Shown here piece after piece: positions 6,652-28,542 of a stretch of 31,998 nt of DNA. The DNA lies in the IMG/VR virus record IMGVR_UViG_2724679538_000010, positions 1-31,998 of that record; one strand, given 5' to 3'. The notes under the pieces were generated by a model. That model was not told the DNA's origin and did no database searches. It was given only the letters and a program-made list of their open reading frames with translations. Position 1 is the first letter of the stretch; every line of letters starts with the position of its first letter. This stretch comes from a virus. Lineage: Duplodnaviria; Heunggongvirae; Uroviricota; Caudoviricetes. The translations under genes were made by a program, and so were the position numbers.

Positions 6652-6754
6652 CCGTTTAACTCCGTGGTTAATGGGTGCAACTATTTTCTGTTGGGTAGTG
6701 CATGAGACGCTATTTGACCTGGCTGGTCAGTGGATGAAACAACAGATAAAGAAA

Positions 6755-6775
6755 AGGCGGGCAATCCGCCCGCCT
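6755..6775 (-). terminator. Intrinsic-terminator-like hairpin oriented for the minus strand (8-bp GC stem aggcgggc/gcccgcct, 5-nt loop, followed on the minus strand by TTTTCTTT)
   Basis: Inverted repeat read directly from the sequence; T-rich tract only on the minus-strand side. Confidence 0.45.
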
Positions 6776-7139
6776 GCCTTGATTTATACTCTCTCAGTTT
6801 CCAACTGACAAATTACGTAACCAAAATTCTGTCAAATCTGACCGCCTGTTTGAGCAAGAAGCGGATGTTTGCCCCTTTTCTCGTCGTTGATGAGGTTTTA
6901 ACGAACCAATATATCGGCCAAATGGCAGCTAATCAGGATGCAGAACGAGTGGGTATTGAATGCCTTCAGGTTAGGCCTGACAAAATCCCCAGGGGAAAAT
7001 ATCAACCTTTGGACTTTCTGATTACTTAATGAAAGATGGCTTTAGGCATCTTTTTTATGATAATTTCTGGCAAACTACTTTTTTTGTTTATATAAAAACT
7101 ATAATATTGGGTTTAACTCACCCAAAGGGAATATTTAAT

Positions 7140-8063
7140 ATGGCAATAAATCAAAAAGACATCAAATTGTTGTGGGGCCGTTCCGGAAATCGATGTGCAA
7201 TTTGTAGGAGAGAGTTGACACAGGATAAGAACTCCGTTAATTCCGCATTTACACTGGGGGAACAGGCACATATTATTGGAGAGAAGGAAGATGCGGCTCG
7301 AGGAAAATCGAATTTAACTCTGGATGAAAGAAATAGTTATCACAATCTTATTCTCCTTTGCCCAAACCATCATACGGAAATTGATAGAAATGTAGAAGAT
7401 TGGCCAGCCGAAAAACTCTATAACGTTAAGTCAGCACATGAGTTATGGGTTTCTGAAACTCTTAGTAGAGTTGAAGATAAATTTTTTCTAGCCAAGCAAG
7501 TTTCAGTAACTTCAATAATTGACTCCGCAGTAAAATATTGTCGTTTAGAAAATTGGCAGAATTGGACTAGCTTTGCATTATCATCAGATCCTAAGTGGCC
7601 TAAAAATTTACCCGATGATATATTTGAATTTCGGCAAAAAGTCATTTCCGCTATATGGCCTAATGAGTTTGATGAACTGCGAAGAGCCACTGAAACATTT
7701 TCCATAACCCTTAACATAGCCGCCCAAACTTTCATGGAACATTCTAAACTTTATGAAGACACTTATTATCCAGATAAATTTTATAAAACTGGTGGCTGGA
7801 ATGTTAATTATGAAGAAGACGTTGAAAAATATAAGCAATGGATTCAAGAATGTCATAATTGGTTAGTGGAAGCCACAAAATCAGCTAATTGGTTTGCTGA
7901 TGTTGTTCGTAGAGATATTAATCCCATGTTCTTTGCAGAGAAAGGGCGATTCTTAACCATGGAAGGTGATATTCTAGGTTTTAAGGCTAAATTACATGTT
8001 TATACCAAAGAACAAAGAGATTCACTGCCTGACTCACTTGATTTGACAATGAACCCTCATTAA
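7140..8063 (+). CDS. HNH-nuclease-domain protein with an uncharacterised C-terminal domain; cargo gene at the P2 Z/fun position
   Basis: N-terminus has C-x2-C (CAICRR), AHIIGE and NLILLCPNHH motifs consistent with an HNH zinc-finger nuclease fold; AT-rich codon usage unlike the flanking backbone; start chosen at the Met preceded by AAGGGA, an upstream in-frame ATG at 7029 is the alternative. Confidence 0.6.
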   Translation: MAINQKDIKLLWGRSGNRCAICRRELTQDKNSVNSAFTLGEQAHIIGEKEDAARGKSNLTLDERNSYHNLILLCPNHHTEIDRNVEDWPAEKLYNVKSAHELWVSETLSRVEDKFFLAKQVSVTSIIDSAVKYCRLENWQNWTSFALSSDPKWPKNLPDDIFEFRQKVISAIWPNEFDELRRATETFSITLNIAAQTFMEHSKLYEDTYYPDKFYKTGGWNVNYEEDVEKYKQWIQECHNWLVEATKSANWFADVVRRDINPMFFAEKGRFLTMEGDILGFKAKLHVYTKEQRDSLPDSLDLTMNPH

Positions 8064-19677: not shown

Positions 19678-21450
19678 ATGACCATCACCACAGACACCAC
19701 TCTTTTACACGACCCGCGTCGTCAGGCGGCGCTGCTGTACTGGCAGGGATTTTCCGTGCCGCAGATTGCCGCCATGTTGCAGATGAAACGCCCGACGGTG
19801 CAGAGCTGGAAACAGCGCGACGGCTGGGACAGCGTTGCCCCCATCAGCCGTGTCGAAATGAGTCTGGAAGCGCGGCTGACCCAGCTCATCATCAAACCGC
19901 AGAAAACCGGCGGTGACTTCAAGGAAATTGACCTGCTCGGACGCCAGATTGAACGACTGGCACGGGTCAACCGTTACAGTCAGACCGGCAACGAGGCAGA
20001 CCTTAATCCGAACGTCGCTAACCGCAACAAAGGCGGGCGTCGCAAACCGAAAAAGAATTTTTTCAGTGACGAGGCCATCGAAAAGCTGGAGCAGATTTTC
20101 TTTGAGCAGTCTTTCGAATATCAGTTGCACTGGTATCGCGCCGGGCTTGAGCACCGCATCCGCGATATCCTGAAATCCCGCCAGATTGGCGCGACGTTTT
20201 ATTTTTCCCGCGAGGCGCTGCTGCGCGCCCTGAAAACCGGTCATAACCAGATTTTTCTGTCGGCCAGTAAAACGCAGGCGTATGTGTTCCGCGAATACAT
20301 CATCGCCTTTGCCCGGCTGGTTGACGTTGACCTGACCGGTGACCCGATTGTCCTGGGCAATAACGGCGCAAAACTAATTTTTCTCGGCACCAACTCCAAC
20401 ACCGCACAGAGCCATAACGGCGACCTGTACGTCGACGAGATTTTCTGGATCCCGAATTTTCAGGTACTGCGTAAGGTGGCATCAGGTATGGCCTCACAGA
20501 GTCACCTGCGTTCGACCTATTTCTCCACCCCGTCCACGCTGGCGCACGACGCCTACCCGTTCTGGTCGGGTGAACTGTTCAACCGGGGACGCGCCAGCGC
20601 CGCCGAACGCGTGGAAATCGACGTCAGTCATAACGCCCTTGCCGGTGGGCTTCTCTGTGCGGACGGCCAGTGGCGGCAGATTGTCACCATTGAGGACGCC
20701 CTGAAAGGTGGCTGCACGCTGTTCGACATTGAGCAGCTCAAACGTGAAAACAGCGCCGACGATTTTAAAAACCTGTTCATGTGTGAATTTGTTGACGACA
20801 AGGCGTCGGTGTTCCCGTTCGAGGAGCTGCAACGCTGCATGGTCGACACGCTGGAAGAATGGGAAGACTATGCGCCGTTTGCCGCGAATCCGTTCGGCTC
20901 CCGCCCGGTATGGATTGGTTACGACCCGTCACACCGTGGCGACAGCGCCGGATGCGTGGTGCTGGCACCGCCGGTGGTGGCCGGTGGCAAATTCAGAATA
21001 CTTGAGCGTCACCAGTGGAAAGGCATGGACTTTGCCACTCAGGCGGAATCCATCCGCAAACTCACCGAAAAATACAACGTCGAATACATCGGTATTGATG
21101 CCACCGGCCTCGGTGTCGGCGTGTTCCAGCTCGTGCGCTCGTTCTATCCCGCCGCGCGCGATATCCGCTACACGCCGGAAATGAAAACCGCAATGGTGCT
21201 CAAGGCAAAAGACGTTATCCGCCGTGGCTGTCTGGAATATGACGTCAGCGCCACCGACATCACCAGCTCGTTTATGGCTATCCGCAAGACCATGACCAGC
21301 AGCGGACGCAGCGCCACCTATGAGGCCAGCCGCAGCGAGGAAGCCAGCCACGCCGACCTCGCCTGGGCAACCATGCACGCCCTGTTAAATGAGCCACTCA
21401 CCGCCGGTATCAGCACTCCGCTGACATCCACCATTCTGGAGTTTTACTGA
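19678..21450 (+). CDS. P: Terminase large (ATPase) subunit P
   Basis: 590 aa from MTITTDTTLLHDPRRQAALLYWQGFSVPQIA...; divergent from O; SD GAGGT upstream. Confidence 0.9.
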   Translation: MTITTDTTLLHDPRRQAALLYWQGFSVPQIAAMLQMKRPTVQSWKQRDGWDSVAPISRVEMSLEARLTQLIIKPQKTGGDFKEIDLLGRQIERLARVNRYSQTGNEADLNPNVANRNKGGRRKPKKNFFSDEAIEKLEQIFFEQSFEYQLHWYRAGLEHRIRDILKSRQIGATFYFSREALLRALKTGHNQIFLSASKTQAYVFREYIIAFARLVDVDLTGDPIVLGNNGAKLIFLGTNSNTAQSHNGDLYVDEIFWIPNFQVLRKVASGMASQSHLRSTYFSTPSTLAHDAYPFWSGELFNRGRASAAERVEIDVSHNALAGGLLCADGQWRQIVTIEDALKGGCTLFDIEQLKRENSADDFKNLFMCEFVDDKASVFPFEELQRCMVDTLEEWEDYAPFAANPFGSRPVWIGYDPSHRGDSAGCVVLAPPVVAGGKFRILERHQWKGMDFATQAESIRKLTEKYNVEYIGIDATGLGVGVFQLVRSFYPAARDIRYTPEMKTAMVLKAKDVIRRGCLEYDVSATDITSSFMAIRKTMTSSGRSATYEASRSEEASHADLAWATMHALLNEPLTAGISTPLTSTILEFY

Positions 21451-22484
21451 TGAGCAAGAAAAAAGGGAAAACACCGCAACCTGAGGCAAAAAAAATGACC
21501 GCCAGCGCCCCGAAAATGGAGGCTTTCACCTTTGGTGAGCCGGTGCCGGTACTCGACCGCCGTGACATTCTGGATTACGTCGAGTGCATCAGTAACGGCA
21601 GATGGTATGAGCCGCCGGTCAGCTTTACCGGTCTGGCGAAAAGCCTGCGTGCTGCCGTGCATCACAGCTCACCGATTTACGTTAAACGCAATATTCTGGC
21701 CTCGACATTTATCCCGCATCCGTGGCTTTCGCAACAGGATTTCAGCCGCTTTGTGCTGGATTTTCTGGTGTTCGGTAATGCGTTTCTGGAAAAGCGTTAC
21801 AGCACCACCGGTAAGGTCATCAGACTGGAAACCTCACCGGCAAAATATACCCGCCGTGGCGTGGAGGAGGATGTTTACTGGTGGGTGCCGTCCTTCAACG
21901 AGCCGACAGCCTTCACGCCCGGCTCCGTGTTTCACCTGCTGGAGCCGGATATTAATCAGGAGTTGTACGGCCTGCCGGAATATCTCAGCGCCCTTAATTC
22001 TGCCTGGCTGAATGAGTCGGCCACGCTGTTCCGCCGAAAGTATTACGAAAATGGCGCTCATGCCGGATACATCATGTACGTCACCGATGCCGTGCAGGAT
22101 CGCAACGATATCGAAATGCTTCGCGAAAACATGGTCAAGTCGAAAGGCCGCAACAACTTTAAAAACCTGTTTCTCTATGCCCCACAGGGGAAAGCCGACG
22201 GCATTAAAATTATCCCCCTCAGTGAAGTGGCGACGAAGGACGATTTTTTTAATATCAAAAAAGCCAGCGCCGCTGACCTGCTGGACGCGCACCGCATCCC
22301 CTTTCAGTTGATGGGCGGCAAGCCGGAGAACGTCGGGTCACTGGGAGATATTGAGAAAGTGGCAAAGGTCTTTGTCCGCAATGAGCTTATCCCGCTACAG
22401 GACAGGATCCGCGAGATAAACGGCTGGCTCGGTCAGGAGGTCATCCGCTTTAAAAACTACTCACTGGACACTGACAACGGCTGA
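21450..22484 (+). CDS. Q: Portal protein Q
   Basis: 344-aa ORF; length and position match P2 Q. Confidence 0.9.
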   Translation: MSKKKGKTPQPEAKKMTASAPKMEAFTFGEPVPVLDRRDILDYVECISNGRWYEPPVSFTGLAKSLRAAVHHSSPIYVKRNILASTFIPHPWLSQQDFSRFVLDFLVFGNAFLEKRYSTTGKVIRLETSPAKYTRRGVEEDVYWWVPSFNEPTAFTPGSVFHLLEPDINQELYGLPEYLSALNSAWLNESATLFRRKYYENGAHAGYIMYVTDAVQDRNDIEMLRENMVKSKGRNNFKNLFLYAPQGKADGIKIIPLSEVATKDDFFNIKKASAADLLDAHRIPFQLMGGKPENVGSLGDIEKVAKVFVRNELIPLQDRIREINGWLGQEVIRFKNYSLDTDNG

Positions 22485-22488
22485 ACAT

Positions 22489-22512
22489 CGCCGCCTGCGG
22501 GCGGCTTTTTTA
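22489..22512 (+). terminator. Rho-independent terminator after Q (stem ccgcc/ggcgg, loop tgcg, then T6)
   Basis: GC hairpin followed by TTTTTT directly downstream of the Q stop codon. Confidence 0.6.
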
Positions 22513-22653
22513 CACCCCGTCATCACGCCCTCACACGCTCACCACCGTACAAAACACCCCGCAGACACACCAACGCCTCAACGGGCAGACTAAGCGCCGT
22601 CACGACGCGCTGAGACGCTGAAAAAATACAATCAGCACCACTGTCAGCGCGCA

Positions 22654-22672
22654 GTGCTTTCCCCGCCTCGCC
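22654..22672. other. cos: cos site: 19-nt cohesive-end sequence
   Basis: gtgctttccccgcctcgcc is the exact reverse complement of GGCGAGGCGGGGAAAGCAC, which I recall as the P2 cohesive end; position next to Q is as expected. Confidence 0.7.
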
Positions 22673-22909
22673 CGCCCGCTTCATAGGGCGGTTTTAATGC
22701 AGTTGCTTAGATACTATGGATCCGCACCAGCTCTGACCGCAAGCAGCCGGAACGGGCATCCCCGACGCATGCAAAAACATTCACTTGTTGCATGCACGGC
22801 TTATTTAATGACAAATCAACTTAAATTTACAAAATCCACAGGTATGGATACTTTGCGAACATGATAGGCTTACGAGAATTATCTAGCCTATTTTTGACCG
22901 GAGCAATGT

Positions 22910-23851
22910 ATGCAAGGTAAAGTTGACGAACAGCAATCCAATGATATTGAAGCTGAGTTTGGATACTATCCAGTAGAAGTTAACGTTGAAACTGATGATT
23001 TTTCTTTACTTACTTTACCCGGTCTAGCGGAAAAAACAAATCTTATAAACAATCACAGAAATGTTATTAACGGTTGGATATACCCAGGAAACCAAGAAGT
23101 ATATAACCTCAATGGAGGCATATCCACAATGCCTTTTAGCCAACGAGTATTTGGCTTACCCAAAACACACTCACTAAAATTAAAAAATACATCTTCACTA
23201 GAAACTCTCAATTTTGCTGTGTGGTGTCTGTCTTTTTTCAAAGGGATAAGATTAACAACTACTGATGCCGGTTTTTTAGACGCAACCCCAATAAAACCCA
23301 GCAAATTAACTGACTTTATTCTGGTCAAGTGCTCTGAAAAAGAGGTTATAGAATTAGCACTCAAATACATGTCTAGCGAGAAAAAAACCAAACACGCACC
23401 AATAAATATCGCAGCAATAGTGCATGCACTATTTTTATCCCAAAACCCACAATACCTTAGCTTCGAAAAATTCCAGTATCTTTATATGGCACTGGATAGT
23501 TGCTTTGCTTTAACATGGGCAGAAAAGAACAAGTGTACAGAAAAGACTCTAAATCACTCCAGGCGCTTGAAGTGGATCTGCAAAACTTATGGCATACCAC
23601 GACCATCATGGGTTACAGGCAAAAAAAACATTACAAACATCCGCAATGAAAACTTTCATGAAGCTATGTTTCATGGTCAACCACTTGGCTTTACCACTAT
23701 TAACAATTATCAATATGGAGATGACATATTACAACAAATGCAGGCTTTAATTTGCCGATTGCTCGTTGCGATTCTTGGTGTTAACGCCCCCGATTACATC
23801 ACATCGAACGTGAACTCTCGTGAATATCATTCACTAACATTAAAAATATAA
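22910..23851 (+). CDS. Hypothetical 313-aa protein, AT-rich cargo gene, no recognisable motif
   Basis: Long uninterrupted ORF with GGAG SD upstream; composition and codon usage unlike the prophage backbone. Confidence 0.55.
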   Translation: MQGKVDEQQSNDIEAEFGYYPVEVNVETDDFSLLTLPGLAEKTNLINNHRNVINGWIYPGNQEVYNLNGGISTMPFSQRVFGLPKTHSLKLKNTSSLETLNFAVWCLSFFKGIRLTTTDAGFLDATPIKPSKLTDFILVKCSEKEVIELALKYMSSEKKTKHAPINIAAIVHALFLSQNPQYLSFEKFQYLYMALDSCFALTWAEKNKCTEKTLNHSRRLKWICKTYGIPRPSWVTGKKNITNIRNENFHEAMFHGQPLGFTTINNYQYGDDILQQMQALICRLLVAILGVNAPDYITSNVNSREYHSLTLKI

Positions 23852-23866
23852 AACGACTAAAAATAC

Positions 23867-23892
23867 TCTCCAGTAACAATAAGTACTGGAGA
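23867..23892. terminator. Hairpin between convergent cargo genes (9-bp stem tctccagta/tactggaga, 8-nt loop); T-rich flank on the minus-strand side
   Basis: Perfect inverted repeat between the stop codons of the 313-aa gene and the membrane-protein gene. Confidence 0.5.
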
Positions 23893-23933
23893 TGTATTAT
23901 CACTAAAACCAATAAAAAATCACAACTAATGCT

Positions 23934-24533
23934 TTACTTAGATAGTTTGTCTTTAATTATATTCAGAACACCAATTATTAATTCACTGATTGGCGTGGCC
24001 AACTCAATAGTATTAGATGTCGACTTTGTTCTAAAGTCTTTATCTGTCGGGTGTTGAAATGCTGATTTAAGAAGAGTCAAAAGCAAAGTTAAACCCACAC
24101 CAAGGATGAATGCAACAATAGCTATTAGAGAACTGGCCGATAACCAATCGGTGGATAAACCAGAAATAGATTTTCTAACTTTATTAGTGTCTGAAGATGG
24201 TGTTATCCTCTCATCAGCCATCTTCGGATCCGCAGATAAAGCAGAACATTTTTCTGCTGAAACACAAGTTTGTGCATCTACTTTTTGTGTTATCGCTGTG
24301 GCAATACTGCTTTTCGCTTCCAGCAAGCCATTTCCAACAGCCAAAGCAAAGTTAAGCCCCTGCCATAGAAATGTACAAGCAAAACAAAGCACAACGGCAG
24401 AGAGCACTAATCGCATACTTCTACGCTCTATACCATCCCGTCTATCTCGCCTTATAAGGATATCAGGATCTAAATCGCCCTTAGGAGTGGTTCCTTGCTC
24501 TGGGGACTGTCCAGATAAATCAATATCAGCCAT
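23934..24533 (-). CDS. Predicted two-helix membrane protein (199 aa) with charged N-terminal region; putative effector
   Basis: Two hydrophobic segments (LVLSAVVLCFACTFLWQGLNFALAV and LIAIVAFILGVGLTLLLTLL); co-directional with and 66 bp downstream of the peptidase gene. Confidence 0.6.
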   Translation of the reverse strand: MADIDLSGQSPEQGTTPKGDLDPDILIRRDRRDGIERRSMRLVLSAVVLCFACTFLWQGLNFALAVGNGLLEAKSSIATAITQKVDAQTCVSAEKCSALSADPKMADERITPSSDTNKVRKSISGLSTDWLSASSLIAIVAFILGVGLTLLLTLLKSAFQHPTDKDFRTKSTSNTIELATPISELIIGVLNIIKDKLSK

Positions 24534-24538
24534 AAAAA

Positions 24539-24572
24539 AATCACCCTTACATATACAAACGTAAAGGTGATT
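24539..24572 (-). promoter_or_regulatory. Intergenic hairpin plus U7 tract between peptidase and membrane genes; intrinsic attenuator that also occludes the membrane gene SD
   Basis: Minus-strand RNA AAUCACCUUUA-(12 nt loop)-UAAGGGUGAUU-UUUUUUU-AUG: 11-bp stem with one G.U pair, 3' arm contains the SD-like AAGGGUGA. Confidence 0.5.
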
Positions 24573-24599
24573 TTAAACAGGTTAAAAGTTAAAGGCTAA

Positions 24600-25085
24600 T
24601 TAATAAGCCATTCCTAAGCTCTTTAAGCGCCAATGCATAGCGGCTTCTGATACATTAAAGATGCTTGCTAATCTCAAAGTGCTATCAATACCTTCTCTGG
24701 ATACCAATTGACGTATAGCAGACTCAGGCATTAACAACTCAGCAGCAAACTTGTTTGCTTCAACCTCACGGTAATCACGAGCACCTGTTGAATAATTCCC
24801 GACATTATCCCGATGGTACTCTCCGTCCTGGGTATGCCCCAGCACATGATGACCTAACTCGTGTGCAACAGTAAAACGTTGACGATTAGAATGTTCACTA
24901 GAATCAAAATAAATCCTATGGACACCCTTTTTGATGACAGCCAGACCGCTTAACCCATCGTTGTTATAAGCCGATTCCTCAAGTGCTTCAACACGAGCAC
25001 CCCACGCTTTAGCAAGCTTAAACGGATCGACAGGTAGTCGGCGATCCCAATAGCGGTCAAGCAGTTTTTTAGCTGCATAGCTCAT
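24600..25085 (-). CDS. ImmA/IrrE-family (COG2856-like) zinc metallopeptidase, 161 aa
   Basis: HEXXH motif in FTVAHELGHHVLGH followed by EANKFAAELLMPE, characteristic of ImmA/IrrE peptidases; strong SD AGGAGG 6 nt upstream of the ATG; no HTH domain in the protein. Confidence 0.75.
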   Translation of the reverse strand: MSYAAKKLLDRYWDRRLPVDPFKLAKAWGARVEALEESAYNNDGLSGLAVIKKGVHRIYFDSSEHSNRQRFTVAHELGHHVLGHTQDGEYHRDNVGNYSTGARDYREVEANKFAAELLMPESAIRQLVSREGIDSTLRLASIFNVSEAAMHWRLKSLGMAY

Positions 25086-25807
25086 GGTTGCCTCCTACGT
25101 TAAAAAAGTTAAGTATGCACAGCCATATCACAGTTGTTATTTTATGTCAAGGCTGTTTTTCAGCCATTACTATAACACTAATCCACGTTTTCCCATAACA
25201 TTTTCGACATCATATATGCATTCAGTTCTGCATATAGCGCTTATCTTTGCTGATAACACGAGATGAATACGCGCAATCAGCCCACGATTTATAAAAAACC
25301 TTATAAATCAGAACATTGAGTTAAAAAAAACACTAACTACTTGCGCAGCGAGTTGTTAAACCTCAGCGACACTAAAAGAAAATTTCAGAGTCACCGCAGC
25401 TTCCACAGAAAACGCAACATAATGATTTTATTGGAATTTATGGCGCTATTTTTAATTACTTGTTTAAATCCGCCATATTGAAACTGTGCATTTCTAGCCA
25501 CTCACAACTTTAAAAAATTTACATTGCTTTCAAGACCTTATCATCCGTAGTCTCTGCTTTTTACTTTGAGCTATATCAAAAAAAGCTCAAACATCCTTGA
25601 TGCAAAACCAGTATTACACAACATAAAATGCAACCAGAAACAACGACATACCATATATTGTGTTGTTCAGGTCCTCTGTTCGGTGATATGCCAGATCACT
25701 TTGCGTTTAAACAGAGCATTATTTCAGGGCAAGACTTCGCTCAATAGTCACTCCGCCTTAGAAGCGCATATATCGGCGGAAATTGCCCTCTGCTTACAGG
25801 AGGCGAT

Positions 25808-25921
25808 ATGAAGAAGTGCTATTACTGCATTCTCGTTCTGGCCCTCTTTGGCTATCCATATGGTAGTCCGAGTGGTTTGTCAGTAAACGTCAGTAATATC
25901 CATGTAAGTATTTTTCTTTAG
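25808..25921 (+). CDS. Possible small hydrophobic protein (37 aa, MKKCYYCILVLALFGYPYGSPSGLSVNVSNIHVSIFL)
   Basis: Consensus SD AGGAGG 7 nt upstream of the ATG; ORF ends just before a strong terminator; below the 60-aa cutoff of the ORF track; no homology evidence. Confidence 0.25.
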   Translation: MKKCYYCILVLALFGYPYGSPSGLSVNVSNIHVSIFL

Positions 25922-25933
25922 TATGCTTCAAAC

Positions 25934-25963
25934 AAAAAAACCACCTGCCAGGGTGGTTTTTTT
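25934..25963. terminator. Bidirectional rho-independent terminator (A7 - ccacc..ggtgg hairpin - T7)
   Basis: aaaaaaaccacctgccagggtggttttttt read directly; lies downstream of A on the minus strand and of the small ORF on the plus strand. Confidence 0.65.
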
Positions 25964-26223
25964 GCGCCCGTCATCAATCCGATGAAAGACTAGCAAGACT
26001 TCGCTCGAGATGAATTATGCTTCGACATAAAGTCACTCGCAATGGTTTTATTAACCGAAATAGATGCTCTTTTATGACTCGAATCAAATAGCTGCCTTCA
26101 ATTACATGCTAACGATTCAATACAATTTAGCCTTCTGATTCAACACGCTATTGCTCCTCATCTACCTTAGAGGTGCTTCGCATAATCCATTCAAAGACAT
26201 ATAAAATCACGCTGTATTTTTAC

Positions 26224-28542
26224 TCAAATGGGTAACAAAAATCCCGGCCAATCATCAGCGACCTGATAAGTGAAAGGTTTCCCGTCATAATTTACGGTCG
26301 CGCCACGCGCCAGCGCCTCAAGCTCCCATCGTTGCGGCCTGATACCGTTCTGAGCGAGATCAACGCGGATACGGGTAATTTGCAATCGTTCCGACCGGGT
26401 CAGCCTGGCCGACGGTGCTATTTCATGTGGTTTTAACGGGCTTCCGTTTCTTTGCTGACGATTTGGTGTTTTCAGGCCGTGCTTTAATGCACCCCTGAGC
26501 GTCCTCACGACCTCCGGGTCATTCCATTCGATAACACCGTCATCAACCAGATTAAGCACTGCTGCGGCGTGCTCAGAAGGCGAGGGAGCCGGTAACGAAG
26601 TATTACCGCCGGTGAGCTTTCCACAGTTATTGACAGGACTCCGAGGCGCGGCGATGCCGCTTTTTAAAGTCAAAGGCTCAACGACCGGAACTTTCGGCAC
26701 AATGCGCCAGTCCGTCGTTCTGGTGATATGAATATGACGCGCGCCGAGATGCGGCGCGTAAATGCCGACCACTCTCTCGACTTCTTCCTCGTATTCGTTA
26801 ACGTCATCCGACGGGCTACGAGCGACCCTGACAGTCTGACAATCGCGCGGGACATTTGCCCCGCCCTGCGCGCTGATATACAGCGCAAAATCGCCACTGT
26901 CTGCGGCGGCGCGTGCAGCCTCCACGCGTTCGTCAAATTCATCAGCAATGCTGACGCCGCGAGGCAATTTACGTAGCTCACGGTAAGCTCCCATTGTCGG
27001 CAGGCCAACCGTTTTAAATTGCGGGATGCGCCACGTTGACGCCCATGCGGTAACAGCCGCCGCAGTATCTTTCAGCGGTCTGCCGGTATCGTTATCGAGC
27101 TGACCATCCAGTGCATAGCCGTCGATATTTTTTGAAATGTATTTCGCGATATATCCCGCAGCACCGCCCCGGTTAAGGTGTTTTGCCTGAAAACGGTTTC
27201 GCGCGGCTCCTCTTTCGTCGCCATCCTCTTTGAGCGCATAGCGACGCATGATTTCGATAATCTGGTTACGCTGGCGTGGATTACAAAAAAGCATCATATG
27301 CCAGTGCGGCGTTCCGTCGTGGTGTGGCTCGACGACTCGCAAACCGTAGACCTGTAAATCATTATCCTTGAATGCCGTGCGCATCAGGCTCCAGATACGA
27401 CAGAGATAACGCTGCGCATCCTTTGGATTAAATGCCTCATCATTCCAGCCGTGATTAAGCTGGACGGTTTTATTTTCGCCTTTTCCAACCTGACGTGTCG
27501 GGTGATACTTTGACGGCGCGGTAAGCGTGATAAACATCCCCACATCACCCTCTGATGCGGCGTAACGCTCAATACCGGCAATGGTGTTCATCAGCTCCAT
27601 CCGGCGAATTTCAGGATTAGAAATACTGCCCATCACCTTACTGATAAGGTCGATGCGCTCGCCGGTTTCCCTGTTTTCAAGGTCACACGATTTAAGAAAT
27701 TCCAGATTTGCCTGGCGGCGCGCACGCACATCACGAATGGCATGTTTACTGGCATAAGGTGAACGGTCTTTATTGACCTCCCCGACAGCAATCAGTAACG
27801 CCTCATGCCAGCGCATACGCTGGCCTTTAAGCTGACTAATCCACCACTCATCGTTAAACAGGCGGGCAATGGCAGAATATGCCTGCCTCGTGGTCATCTG
27901 TCCTTTACGGTATTTTTTCCAGTAGAGAGGGGAAATATTGAAAGCACGTGCAGCGCCAGCAACATGACCATACAGGTGAGCCTGCGCCTCATCCGTAAAC
28001 AGCGATTCTTTTTCGCCATGCGCATCCACCCAGGCATCGCAGAGTTCCTCATACATCATGAAAAGCTGCGATGAGATACGGGCGGCAAACTTTTTCAGCT
28101 CCTTGTCATTCATTCCTGGCAGGCGCGCATAGTGGTCACGCTCTGCCAGAAACAGCAACGACGCGTCGGTGTTCATTTCATGGCGCTGATTCACACGCTC
28201 AATACGCGGCCATAAACGACGCTGAAAAGTGGATGTGAGGAAATAAAACCCGTGTACCGGACTTTTATTGCTCCGGATGTAGTCATAGCGTGAAGTAAAC
28301 AGCGAGCGCAAAAAGTAAGGCAGGCGGTTAATCGTGGATAAAACACCTTGCACCTGACGCATCTCGTCACGTGTAAGAGGTCTTTCTCGCCCGACGGCCT
28401 CGCGTGGCGCGTTCCATGCATAAGCACCGGTAAACGTCTCACCGGTGCCTGCGGCAAATGCTGACGGAGGGACAAAACGCCCGGAGGCTTTAACGGCCAT
28501 ATGAGCCAAAAGCCTCTGAACAACGCTTGCTGAGTTGCTCAA
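26224..28542 (-). CDS. A: Replication initiation endonuclease A (rolling-circle initiator)
   Basis: 772-aa ORF; conserved HUH-type region (PHHDGTPHWHMMLF) and paired Tyr region typical of P2 gpA family. Confidence 0.9.
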   Translation of the reverse strand: MSNSASVVQRLLAHMAVKASGRFVPPSAFAAGTGETFTGAYAWNAPREAVGRERPLTRDEMRQVQGVLSTINRLPYFLRSLFTSRYDYIRSNKSPVHGFYFLTSTFQRRLWPRIERVNQRHEMNTDASLLFLAERDHYARLPGMNDKELKKFAARISSQLFMMYEELCDAWVDAHGEKESLFTDEAQAHLYGHVAGAARAFNISPLYWKKYRKGQMTTRQAYSAIARLFNDEWWISQLKGQRMRWHEALLIAVGEVNKDRSPYASKHAIRDVRARRQANLEFLKSCDLENRETGERIDLISKVMGSISNPEIRRMELMNTIAGIERYAASEGDVGMFITLTAPSKYHPTRQVGKGENKTVQLNHGWNDEAFNPKDAQRYLCRIWSLMRTAFKDNDLQVYGLRVVEPHHDGTPHWHMMLFCNPRQRNQIIEIMRRYALKEDGDERGAARNRFQAKHLNRGGAAGYIAKYISKNIDGYALDGQLDNDTGRPLKDTAAAVTAWASTWRIPQFKTVGLPTMGAYRELRKLPRGVSIADEFDERVEAARAAADSGDFALYISAQGGANVPRDCQTVRVARSPSDDVNEYEEEVERVVGIYAPHLGARHIHITRTTDWRIVPKVPVVEPLTLKSGIAAPRSPVNNCGKLTGGNTSLPAPSPSEHAAAVLNLVDDGVIEWNDPEVVRTLRGALKHGLKTPNRQQRNGSPLKPHEIAPSARLTRSERLQITRIRVDLAQNGIRPQRWELEALARGATVNYDGKPFTYQVADDWPGFLLPI

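Follow-up and report, generated by a model that had tools for sequence, protein, structure and literature searches.

What does a peptidase of the ImmA/IrrE (M78) family do when no helix-turn-helix (HTH) repressor stands beside it? The one role understood for these peptidases is to cut HTH repressors, and the question is raised by two adjoining genes of a P2-like (Peduovirus) prophage, IMG/VR record IMGVR_UViG_2724679538_000010, whose 31,998 nucleotides (nt) form the window analysed here. The pair spans positions 23934-25085 and lies on the minus strand, where the original prediction had placed its two open reading frames (ORFs): a gene for an M78 zinc metallopeptidase of 161 amino acids (aa; 24600-25085), followed by a gene for a 199-aa membrane protein with two transmembrane (TM) segments (23934-24533). 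That prediction had seen in them a candidate undescribed module without an HTH partner. We observed that the pair is a genuine, widely mobile and strictly co-inherited two-gene module, in which a conserved lineage of M78 peptidases has a membrane protein as its sole constant partner. The initial observation is therefore confirmed and its interpretation is partly supported.

Related loci were gathered from homologues of the membrane protein and, independently, from distant homologues of the peptidase (45-51% identity). The co-occurrence expected of a module is strict: both genes are present in 16/16 distinct locus types, always in the same order and with a gap of 13-74 nt. The pairwise identities of the two proteins are correlated (r = 0.96, Mantel p = 2e-4, 15 loci), and by a NetFlax-type criterion the genes form a two-gene neighbourhood, coding for small proteins, that is conserved across diverse genomic contexts. 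In the distant loci the downstream proteins, which phmmer does not link to the membrane protein of the window, have the same architecture and a second transmembrane segment (TM2) bearing a GLTL motif.

These contexts are varied. E. coli P2 prophages carry the pair as a second allele, and it is also found in Klebsiella P2/HP1-like prophages, after ssb in a siphovirus-like prophage, at a prophage end in Pectobacterium and between mor and the endolysin gene in Aeromonas Mu-like prophages. In P. aeruginosa lambdoid prophages it lies directly downstream of a cI-like S24 repressor gene, which is the position of rexAB in lambda. The other loci are on Enterobacter and Vibrio plasmids, in a Vibrio harveyi element with serine recombinases on its flanks, on IMG/VR contigs and in a Serratia chromosomal island, where the pair stands beside an HTH-M78 Rosmer-like pair. 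About 50 of 5,426 complete E. coli genomes (~1%) have the cassette, as do three phage records and three plasmid records only, and a search of GTDB species representatives with a profile of the membrane protein gave no confirmed locus. The cassette is rare, strain-level cargo, and the P2 defence hotspot gains with it a cargo type. As a side observation, the Rosmer-like pair of Serratia (loci L006/L007, 7463-9246) is 1.8 kb from our pair and consists of a 223-aa gene followed by a gene for a 371-aa fusion of HTH_3 and Peptidase_M78, of RosmerTA-like build; the variable island, between phn and nrdD genes, holds both kinds of M78 module.

The cassette is, however, not undescribed. The gpA-gpQ hotspot of P2-like prophages was surveyed by Rousset et al. 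(2022, Cell Host Microbe; PMC9122126), and in the available part of their Table S5A the exact peptidase of the window, WP_000119270, is listed at least 23 times, in arrangements given as "hypothetical + Peptidase_M78", one of them with ORF313 (WP_001517496), a neighbouring gene described below. In addition, a "Peptidase + TM" system from E. coli TA280, cloned as pFR104, appears in their Table S2B among "additional tested systems" (PMC9122126). It is a different allele of the cassette, with both protein families present and located, as here, between gpA and gpQ of a P2-like prophage. When we compared pFR104 with the window, we observed 88% identity for the peptidase, 58% for the membrane protein and 87% for the 1.1-kb upstream region. 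Among our loci, L003 encodes exactly the peptidase of pFR104, and the membrane proteins of the two differ only in the annotated start and in the length of a TQ repeat; indeed, that of pFR104 was annotated from an internal Met, as a 165-aa protein with "1 TM" (PMC9122126). The pFR104 insert covers the whole gpA-to-gpQ interval with its native promoter, in a pSC101 vector and a K-12 host (PMC9122126). The cassette is thus already catalogued, with one negative defence test. Our literature search gave no characterisation of it beyond Rousset et al. 2022 and no name, and PADLOC does not hold it; an E. coli CRISPRi study of essentiality is limited to conserved genes and provides no data on this one. 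What is new here is how widely the family extends, how strictly its two genes are inherited together, a hairpin that would both terminate transcription and mask a ribosome-binding site, and a predicted geometry of tail cleavage. As the sole published test was negative, the value of the analysis lies in sharper hypotheses about toxicity, cleavage site and hairpin and not in a demonstrated defence system.

The peptidase and its membrane partner

The peptidase has a single domain and matches Pfam Peptidase_M78 (PF06114) with E = 3.8e-21 and 75.6 bits, for a gathering cut-off of 22, in agreement with its first assignment as an HEXXH enzyme of the ImmA/IrrE type. The motif, HELGH, occupies residues 75-79, with E107 as the third zinc ligand; the spacing from HEXXH to Glu is 28 residues, compared with 27 in CapP (H101-E128; PMC13228613). 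Among 39 peptidase homologues H75, E76, H79, H84, R92, E107 and N111 are invariant, and HExxH and E107 are likewise invariant in 13/13 aligned loci of the pair. The ratio of nonsynonymous to synonymous substitution rates (dN/dS) is 0.03-0.055, which indicates purifying selection. The invariant catalytic residues, together with this selection, suggest that the peptidase is an active enzyme.

An AlphaFold2 model of the peptidase (predicted local distance difference test, pLDDT, of 85) has its best PDB matches in CapP (7T5T), IrrE (3DTI) and PprI (8SLN). In PADLOC the enzyme matches capP with E = 1e-30, over profile positions 8-153 of 242 only, and 15 RmrA models with E down to 6e-17, only in their peptidase part (~146-292 of 357-400). 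The PADLOC check proposed earlier showed that the pair corresponds to no named system, since only the peptidase domain finds these matches and the membrane protein finds nothing. Neither domain searches nor the sequence of the peptidase revealed an HTH or GAF domain, a cysteine or anything else recognisable as a sensor.

The lack of an HTH partner holds beyond the pair. We looked for an HTH domain in both proteins, in ORF313 and in the six small ORFs of the 1.1-kb gap upstream of the cassette and found none, and no adjacent HTH repressor gene was seen in any of the 16 related locus types. Because the partner is constant while the repressors of the various elements differ, no candidate substrate other than the membrane protein accompanies the peptidase throughout.

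This partner (WP_000763339) is present in every related locus. Searches of Pfam, NCBIfam and PADLOC placed it in no family, and its sole group is phrog_8096, to which no function is assigned. It has two hydrophobic segments, at residues ~41-65 (TM1) and ~131-156 (TM2; AFILGVGLTLLLTLLK), with basic juxtamembrane flanks on the cytosolic side and a predicted N-in/C-in topology. From the N-terminus, the protein is made of a disordered Pro-rich tail, a basic juxtamembrane segment, TM1, a variable periplasmic loop, TM2, a linker and a C-terminal amphipathic helix (residues 180-197). The original prediction had described a charged cytoplasmic N-terminus; the cytoplasmic location stands, but the tail has a net charge of about -2 and its basic residues are confined to the last 16. 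The most conserved block is TM2, with 95% column identity, and at its cytosolic end stands a nearly invariant Phe159, followed by the disordered linker and then by the C-terminal helix, which is also conserved. The membrane gene is under purifying selection too (dN/dS 0.07-0.18), and its start codon is backed by a conserved N-terminus, MA-D-IDLSG, and by the geometry of the hairpin and ribosome-binding site described below.

The periplasmic loop, of ~65 aa in the window protein, is the least conserved part, often of low complexity and almost absent in P. aeruginosa. In the enterobacterial subfamily it contains a conserved CxxxxxC motif (residues 90-96; 24246-24266), which may form a disulphide and which is not present in the Vibrio, Aeromonas, Klebsiella and Pseudomonas variants. 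A model of the membrane protein, of moderate confidence (pLDDT 63), gave nothing below E = 0.9 in a fold search against BFVD. The family is small: of 1.84 billion representatives, it accounts for 56 clusters at 50% identity. No member exceeds 273 aa, and there are therefore no fusions and no "Rosetta stone" support for the pairing.

Signals for unequal expression

Divergent loci have in common, as their sole upstream DNA, the ~120 nt located 5' of the peptidase ATG, with 72-82% identity. This segment contains a putative sigma-70 promoter of the cassette (25122-25150, minus strand), with a -35 box TTGACA (25150-25145), a 17-nt spacer and an extended -10 element TGnTATGGC; TTGACA and TGnTA(T/A)GGC are kept in 7/9 aligned loci. 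Upstream of the -35 box lies a conserved block (25151-25205, minus strand) with two GTTAT(G/A)G direct repeats ~24 nt apart, possibly an UP element or an operator. The peptidase gene is preceded by a perfect Shine-Dalgarno sequence, AGGAGG (25091-25096, minus strand), in the form GTAGGAGGC, with CCATG 3-4 nt further on. Both elements, at this distance, are invariant in 9/9 aligned loci, including those with different promoter regions, which points to a strong ribosome-binding site for the peptidase.

The signals of the second gene are of another kind. Between the genes, which share a reading frame, lies a 16-bp hairpin followed by a run of seven U (24537-24574, minus strand), which ends 1 nt before the ATG of the membrane gene. 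Its folding energy is -19.2 kcal/mol (z = -5.4), and 0/200 shuffled sequences fold as well. The 3' arm carries GGGUGAU, the only Shine-Dalgarno-like element of the membrane gene, and the AUCACC of the 5' arm mimics the 3' end of 16S rRNA. Hairpins are found at the equivalent position in 14/16 locus types with differing arm sequences: AUCACC/GGUGAU in enterics, GCCACC/GGUGGC in Aeromonas and Klebsiella, and GCCCUCA/UGAGGGC in Vibrio. In an alignment of 13 sequences 93% of the cells are paired, compared with at most 63% in slid controls, and three pairs are changed on both sides.

To judge from its structure, the hairpin should end most transcripts, and in any that extend past it the ribosome-binding site should be masked. 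Co-transcription of the two genes, as originally proposed, therefore requires read-through of the terminator-like hairpin between them. The invariant AGGAGG of the peptidase gene and the buried site of the membrane gene would therefore give much peptidase and very little membrane protein, a ratio that would be expected if the downstream product were harmful. Combining a terminator with occlusion of a ribosome-binding site, the hairpin offers a clean, testable case of dosage control within an operon. The cassette is closed by a terminator-like hairpin of 9 bp (TCTCCAGTA...TACTGGAGA; 23867-23892), which is bidirectional and shared with ORF313; on the minus strand a T-rich stretch comes next.

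Precedents, a proposed mechanism and its rivals

RosmerTA is, by our comparison, the nearest functional precedent. It resembles the cassette in joining an ImmA/M78 peptidase domain to a variable small partner on mobile elements. In RosmerTA the ImmA domain is a hub antitoxin, and the RmrT of Gordonia phage Kita is a membrane-depolarising toxin with a very narrow defence, against two BASEL phages only (PMC10440598). The differences are that RmrA is an HTH-peptidase fusion of ~360-400 aa, whereas the enzyme of the window has no HTH domain, and that here the peptidase comes first and the membrane protein, with no PADLOC match, is unrelated to known RmrT families.

CapP is the best match of the peptidase in sequence and structure (Foldseek with 7T5T, E = 2.7e-6) and has the same zinc site. 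It is a protein of ~290 aa with HTH and GAF domains, a groove for single-stranded DNA and, in many members, a cysteine-switch loop, and it cuts the adjacent HTH protein CapH between F82 and R83 (PMC13228613). Unlike it, the 161-aa enzyme has no Cys, no CapH gene and no downstream immune operon; the only neighbours of the pair genes are each other and ORF313, and neither the membrane gene nor ORF313 matches anything in PADLOC. More generally, the PDB relatives of the peptidase have 240-330 aa, and IrrE/PprI is a multi-domain protein. ImmA/ImmR of ICEBs1 and IrrE (PprI)/DdrO of Deinococcus share with it the M78 fold and the catalytic motif but act on an HTH repressor, a partner missing from the loci of the pair. 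As a bare peptidase domain without a cysteine or a sensor, the enzyme therefore has the catalytic core of CapP/CapH, ImmA/ImmR and RosmerTA but not the features that define them, and we think that the pair would be best described as an HTH-less variant among the toxin-antitoxin or defence modules built on an ImmA peptidase. Lit (peptidase U49 of prophage e14) and BlaR1/BlaI, HEXXH metalloproteases linked to a prophage or to the membrane that carry out a cytosolic cleavage upon a cue, are conceptual models only: we found no relationship of Lit or BlaR1 to the peptidase in sequence or fold, the Foldseek match with BlaR1 (E ~0.6) being non-significant.

The toxin-antitoxin, abortive-infection or exclusion roles originally proposed appear reasonable. 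Our own preference, held tentatively and with a little less than even confidence, is for a horizontally mobile, self-contained cargo cassette (a "moron") that works as a RosmerTA-like toxin-antitoxin or abortive-infection module without an HTH component, its peptidase controlling a membrane effector through a cytosolic tail of the latter. That the membrane protein is toxic, that the peptidase cleaves it, which of the two controls the other and that the pair serves in defence are all inferred. The constitutive promoter and the perfect ribosome-binding site would provide an abundant, soluble and catalytically active M78 peptidase, and the terminator-like hairpin, burying the second ribosome-binding site, would let through only a trickle of the two-helix inner-membrane protein. 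The latter would be a growth-arresting effector acting through its conserved glycine-containing TM2, probably by oligomerising and disturbing the membrane. As the cytosolic controller, the peptidase would dock on one of the two cytosolic tails of the effector and cleave it, so that the effector stays harmless. If a phage or a stress removed or occupied the peptidase, or forced read-through or translation of the membrane gene, uncleaved effector would build up and lead to cell arrest or to exclusion of the infection.

The likeliest cut would fall in the linker, between the conserved Phe with which TM2 ends and the amphipathic helix of the C-terminus. In ImmR and DdrO the cleavage sites lie after a Phe or a Leu ahead of a C-terminal helix. 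The same pattern is described for M78 enzymes: the bond that they cut follows a Phe or a Leu and lies shortly before a C-terminal helix, by which the substrate docks on the peptidase domain (PMC13228613). The succession of Phe159, linker and C-terminal helix in the membrane protein appears to fit the substrate geometry of CapP, IrrE and ImmA. If this mechanism were true, the M78 family would be shown to control an effector directly, and the cassette would provide a simple HTH-free model for the "ImmA hub antitoxin" of RosmerTA-type systems. A particular form of it, in which the peptidase is a proteolytic antitoxin that clips the cytosolic C-terminal tail of a pore-forming toxin, and in which the hairpin is a second lock, opened by phage antitermination or by loss of the peptidase and leading to abortive infection, seems to us unlikely.

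Several points weigh against the proposed mechanism. A toxin that is to be kept in reserve is ill served by a cleavage that cannot be undone. Neither by fold nor by family does the membrane protein match any known effector. No activity of pFR104 on eight coliphages was reported, the active systems being those of Table S2A only (PMC9122126). Finally, in Salmonella Infantis (CP148870; locus L038, 3001-4151) a near-identical cassette lacks one nucleotide of a G4 run, at nt 246 of the peptidase gene, and the peptidase is thereby frameshifted just past HExxH while the membrane gene is intact. This may be a homopolymer assembly error or a natural peptidase-null; if it is real, the cell can do without the peptidase as an antidote.

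This last case is explained if control runs the other way, the membrane protein being an inactive pro-effector from which a peptidase that senses infection removes an inhibitory tail, with pore formation as the outcome: a Salmonella whose peptidase is broken but whose membrane gene is whole would then be viable. The anatomy, the co-inheritance and the conserved catalytic residues are the same for this explanation as for the mechanism that we prefer, the disordered N-tail or the C-terminal helix could be the removable inhibitor, and CapP and IrrE are signal-activated enzymes. The peptidase is, however, a bare 161-aa domain without GAF, HTH, cysteine or recognisable sensor, it is built for strong constitutive expression, in which an unregulated activator would fire constantly, and the tight throttling of the membrane gene suits a product that is dangerous as made, so that we consider triggering by the peptidase rather improbable. 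The throttling bears also on a role in exclusion free of self-toxicity, in which the two-helix protein tethers the peptidase or senses the envelope, like a split BlaR1, for a Lit-like cleavage of a phage or host protein. An anchor or a sensor needs neither transcriptional nor translational throttling, and the conserved hairpin argues for a harmful product; moreover, a periplasmic loop that is weakly conserved, and reduced in P. aeruginosa, would make a poor sensor, and no exclusion was seen with eight phages. On the other hand, the pair is lysogen-expressed cargo in exclusion-gene slots, its catalytic residues are conserved, conserved cytosolic segments of the membrane protein could be docking sites and the cloned pair was well tolerated; a non-toxic exclusion protease seems to us an improbable explanation all the same.

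A function in the life cycle of the element, either as a holin-like or lysis-timing device tuned by the peptidase or as a pure addiction module with no anti-phage role, is in our opinion quite doubtful. The two TM segments, the N-in/C-in topology and the charged C-terminus resemble class II holins, and in the Aeromonas Mu-like prophages the pair is immediately upstream of the endolysin gene; its presence on plasmids and the negative defence test also agree with such a role. But class II holins are proteins of less than ~110 aa with two TM segments, encoded in a lysis cassette by the endolysin gene, whereas the membrane protein has 199 aa and its gene is in a cargo slot away from the lysis genes, adjoining an endolysin gene in the Aeromonas Mu-like prophages alone. 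P2-like phages, furthermore, have a complete lysis cassette elsewhere, and the pair has its own promoter and terminator, occurs also in a non-phage chromosomal island and on plasmids and is carried by only ~1% of E. coli genomes, which argues against a core phage function. The explanation closest to what is known of the family, a classical ImmA-type anti-repressor, would have the peptidase cut a distant HTH repressor (P2 C, Cox or that of another resident element), the membrane protein being accessory or unrelated. All characterised M78 relatives (ImmA, IrrE/PprI and CapP) indeed cleave HTH repressors, and ImmA is, like our enzyme, a short stand-alone peptidase, of 169 aa. We nevertheless give this explanation very little credit, since the partner is constant across P2, Mu-like, lambdoid, plasmid and island contexts whose repressors differ, no HTH gene adjoins the pair in any locus and the two proteins co-diverge with r = 0.96.

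The island and its other cargo

The low-GC island that holds the cassette (GC 0.36-0.41, compared with ~0.56 for the backbone) lies between the portal gene Q (21450-22484, plus strand; Phage_portal) and the replication gene A (26224-28542, minus strand; Phage_GPA, E = 1.6e-123). This gpA-gpQ hotspot is cos-proximal and is the site of tin and old in P2 (PMC9122126), as the original prediction had recognised. Three ORFs were assigned to the island: the two of the pair and ORF313 (313 aa; 22910-23851, plus strand), which is convergent with them. Searches of Pfam, NCBIfam and PADLOC gave no match for ORF313, and it belongs only to phrog_5937. P2-EC67 (AM157369) carries the same gene, there also called ORF313. 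A three-gene system including ORF313 was rejected, as ORF313 and the pair travel independently: P2-EC67 and Yersinia phages have the former but not the pair, and other loci have the pair but not ORF313. A 304-aa gene that follows the pair on an Enterobacter plasmid is unrelated to it. ORF313 is a separate cargo module of the hotspot.

The 1.1-kb AT-rich stretch between gene A and the cassette (25086-26223) contains no ORF of more than 81 aa and is common only to the TA280-type P2 prophages, with 87% identity; we rejected it as part of the module because divergent loci share only its last ~120 nt. A scan of 22400-26400 with Rfam gave sub-threshold, terminator-driven matches only (RNAI-like, 27.8 bits for a threshold of 47), which were also rejected. 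The same stretch has a hydrophobic ORF of 37 aa (MKKCYYCILVLALFGYPYGSPSGLSVNVSNIHVSIFL; 25808-25921, plus strand) with a perfect AGGAGG ribosome-binding site, followed by a strong bidirectional terminator (~25935-25968). In a TA280-type P2 prophage this ORF is conserved, with a single amino-acid replacement and three synonymous substitutions, in surroundings that are otherwise 87% identical, and it lies inside the fragment cloned as pFR104 by Rousset et al. Its product could be a small membrane peptide, or the gene could be a type I toxin-like one.

A second low-GC cargo island (GC ~0.35; 6730-8063, plus strand) lies between the tail sheath and tail-fibre assembly genes, at a place that corresponds to the Z/fun hotspot of P2. 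HNH_2 genes in this other hotspot of the window and near a plasmid copy of the pair were considered and found to be unrelated. The second island contains a 99-aa ORF and a gene for a 344-aa HNH_2 nuclease, the N-terminus of which matches the PADLOC candidate PDC-M68A (E = 4e-31) and CBASS HNH effectors.

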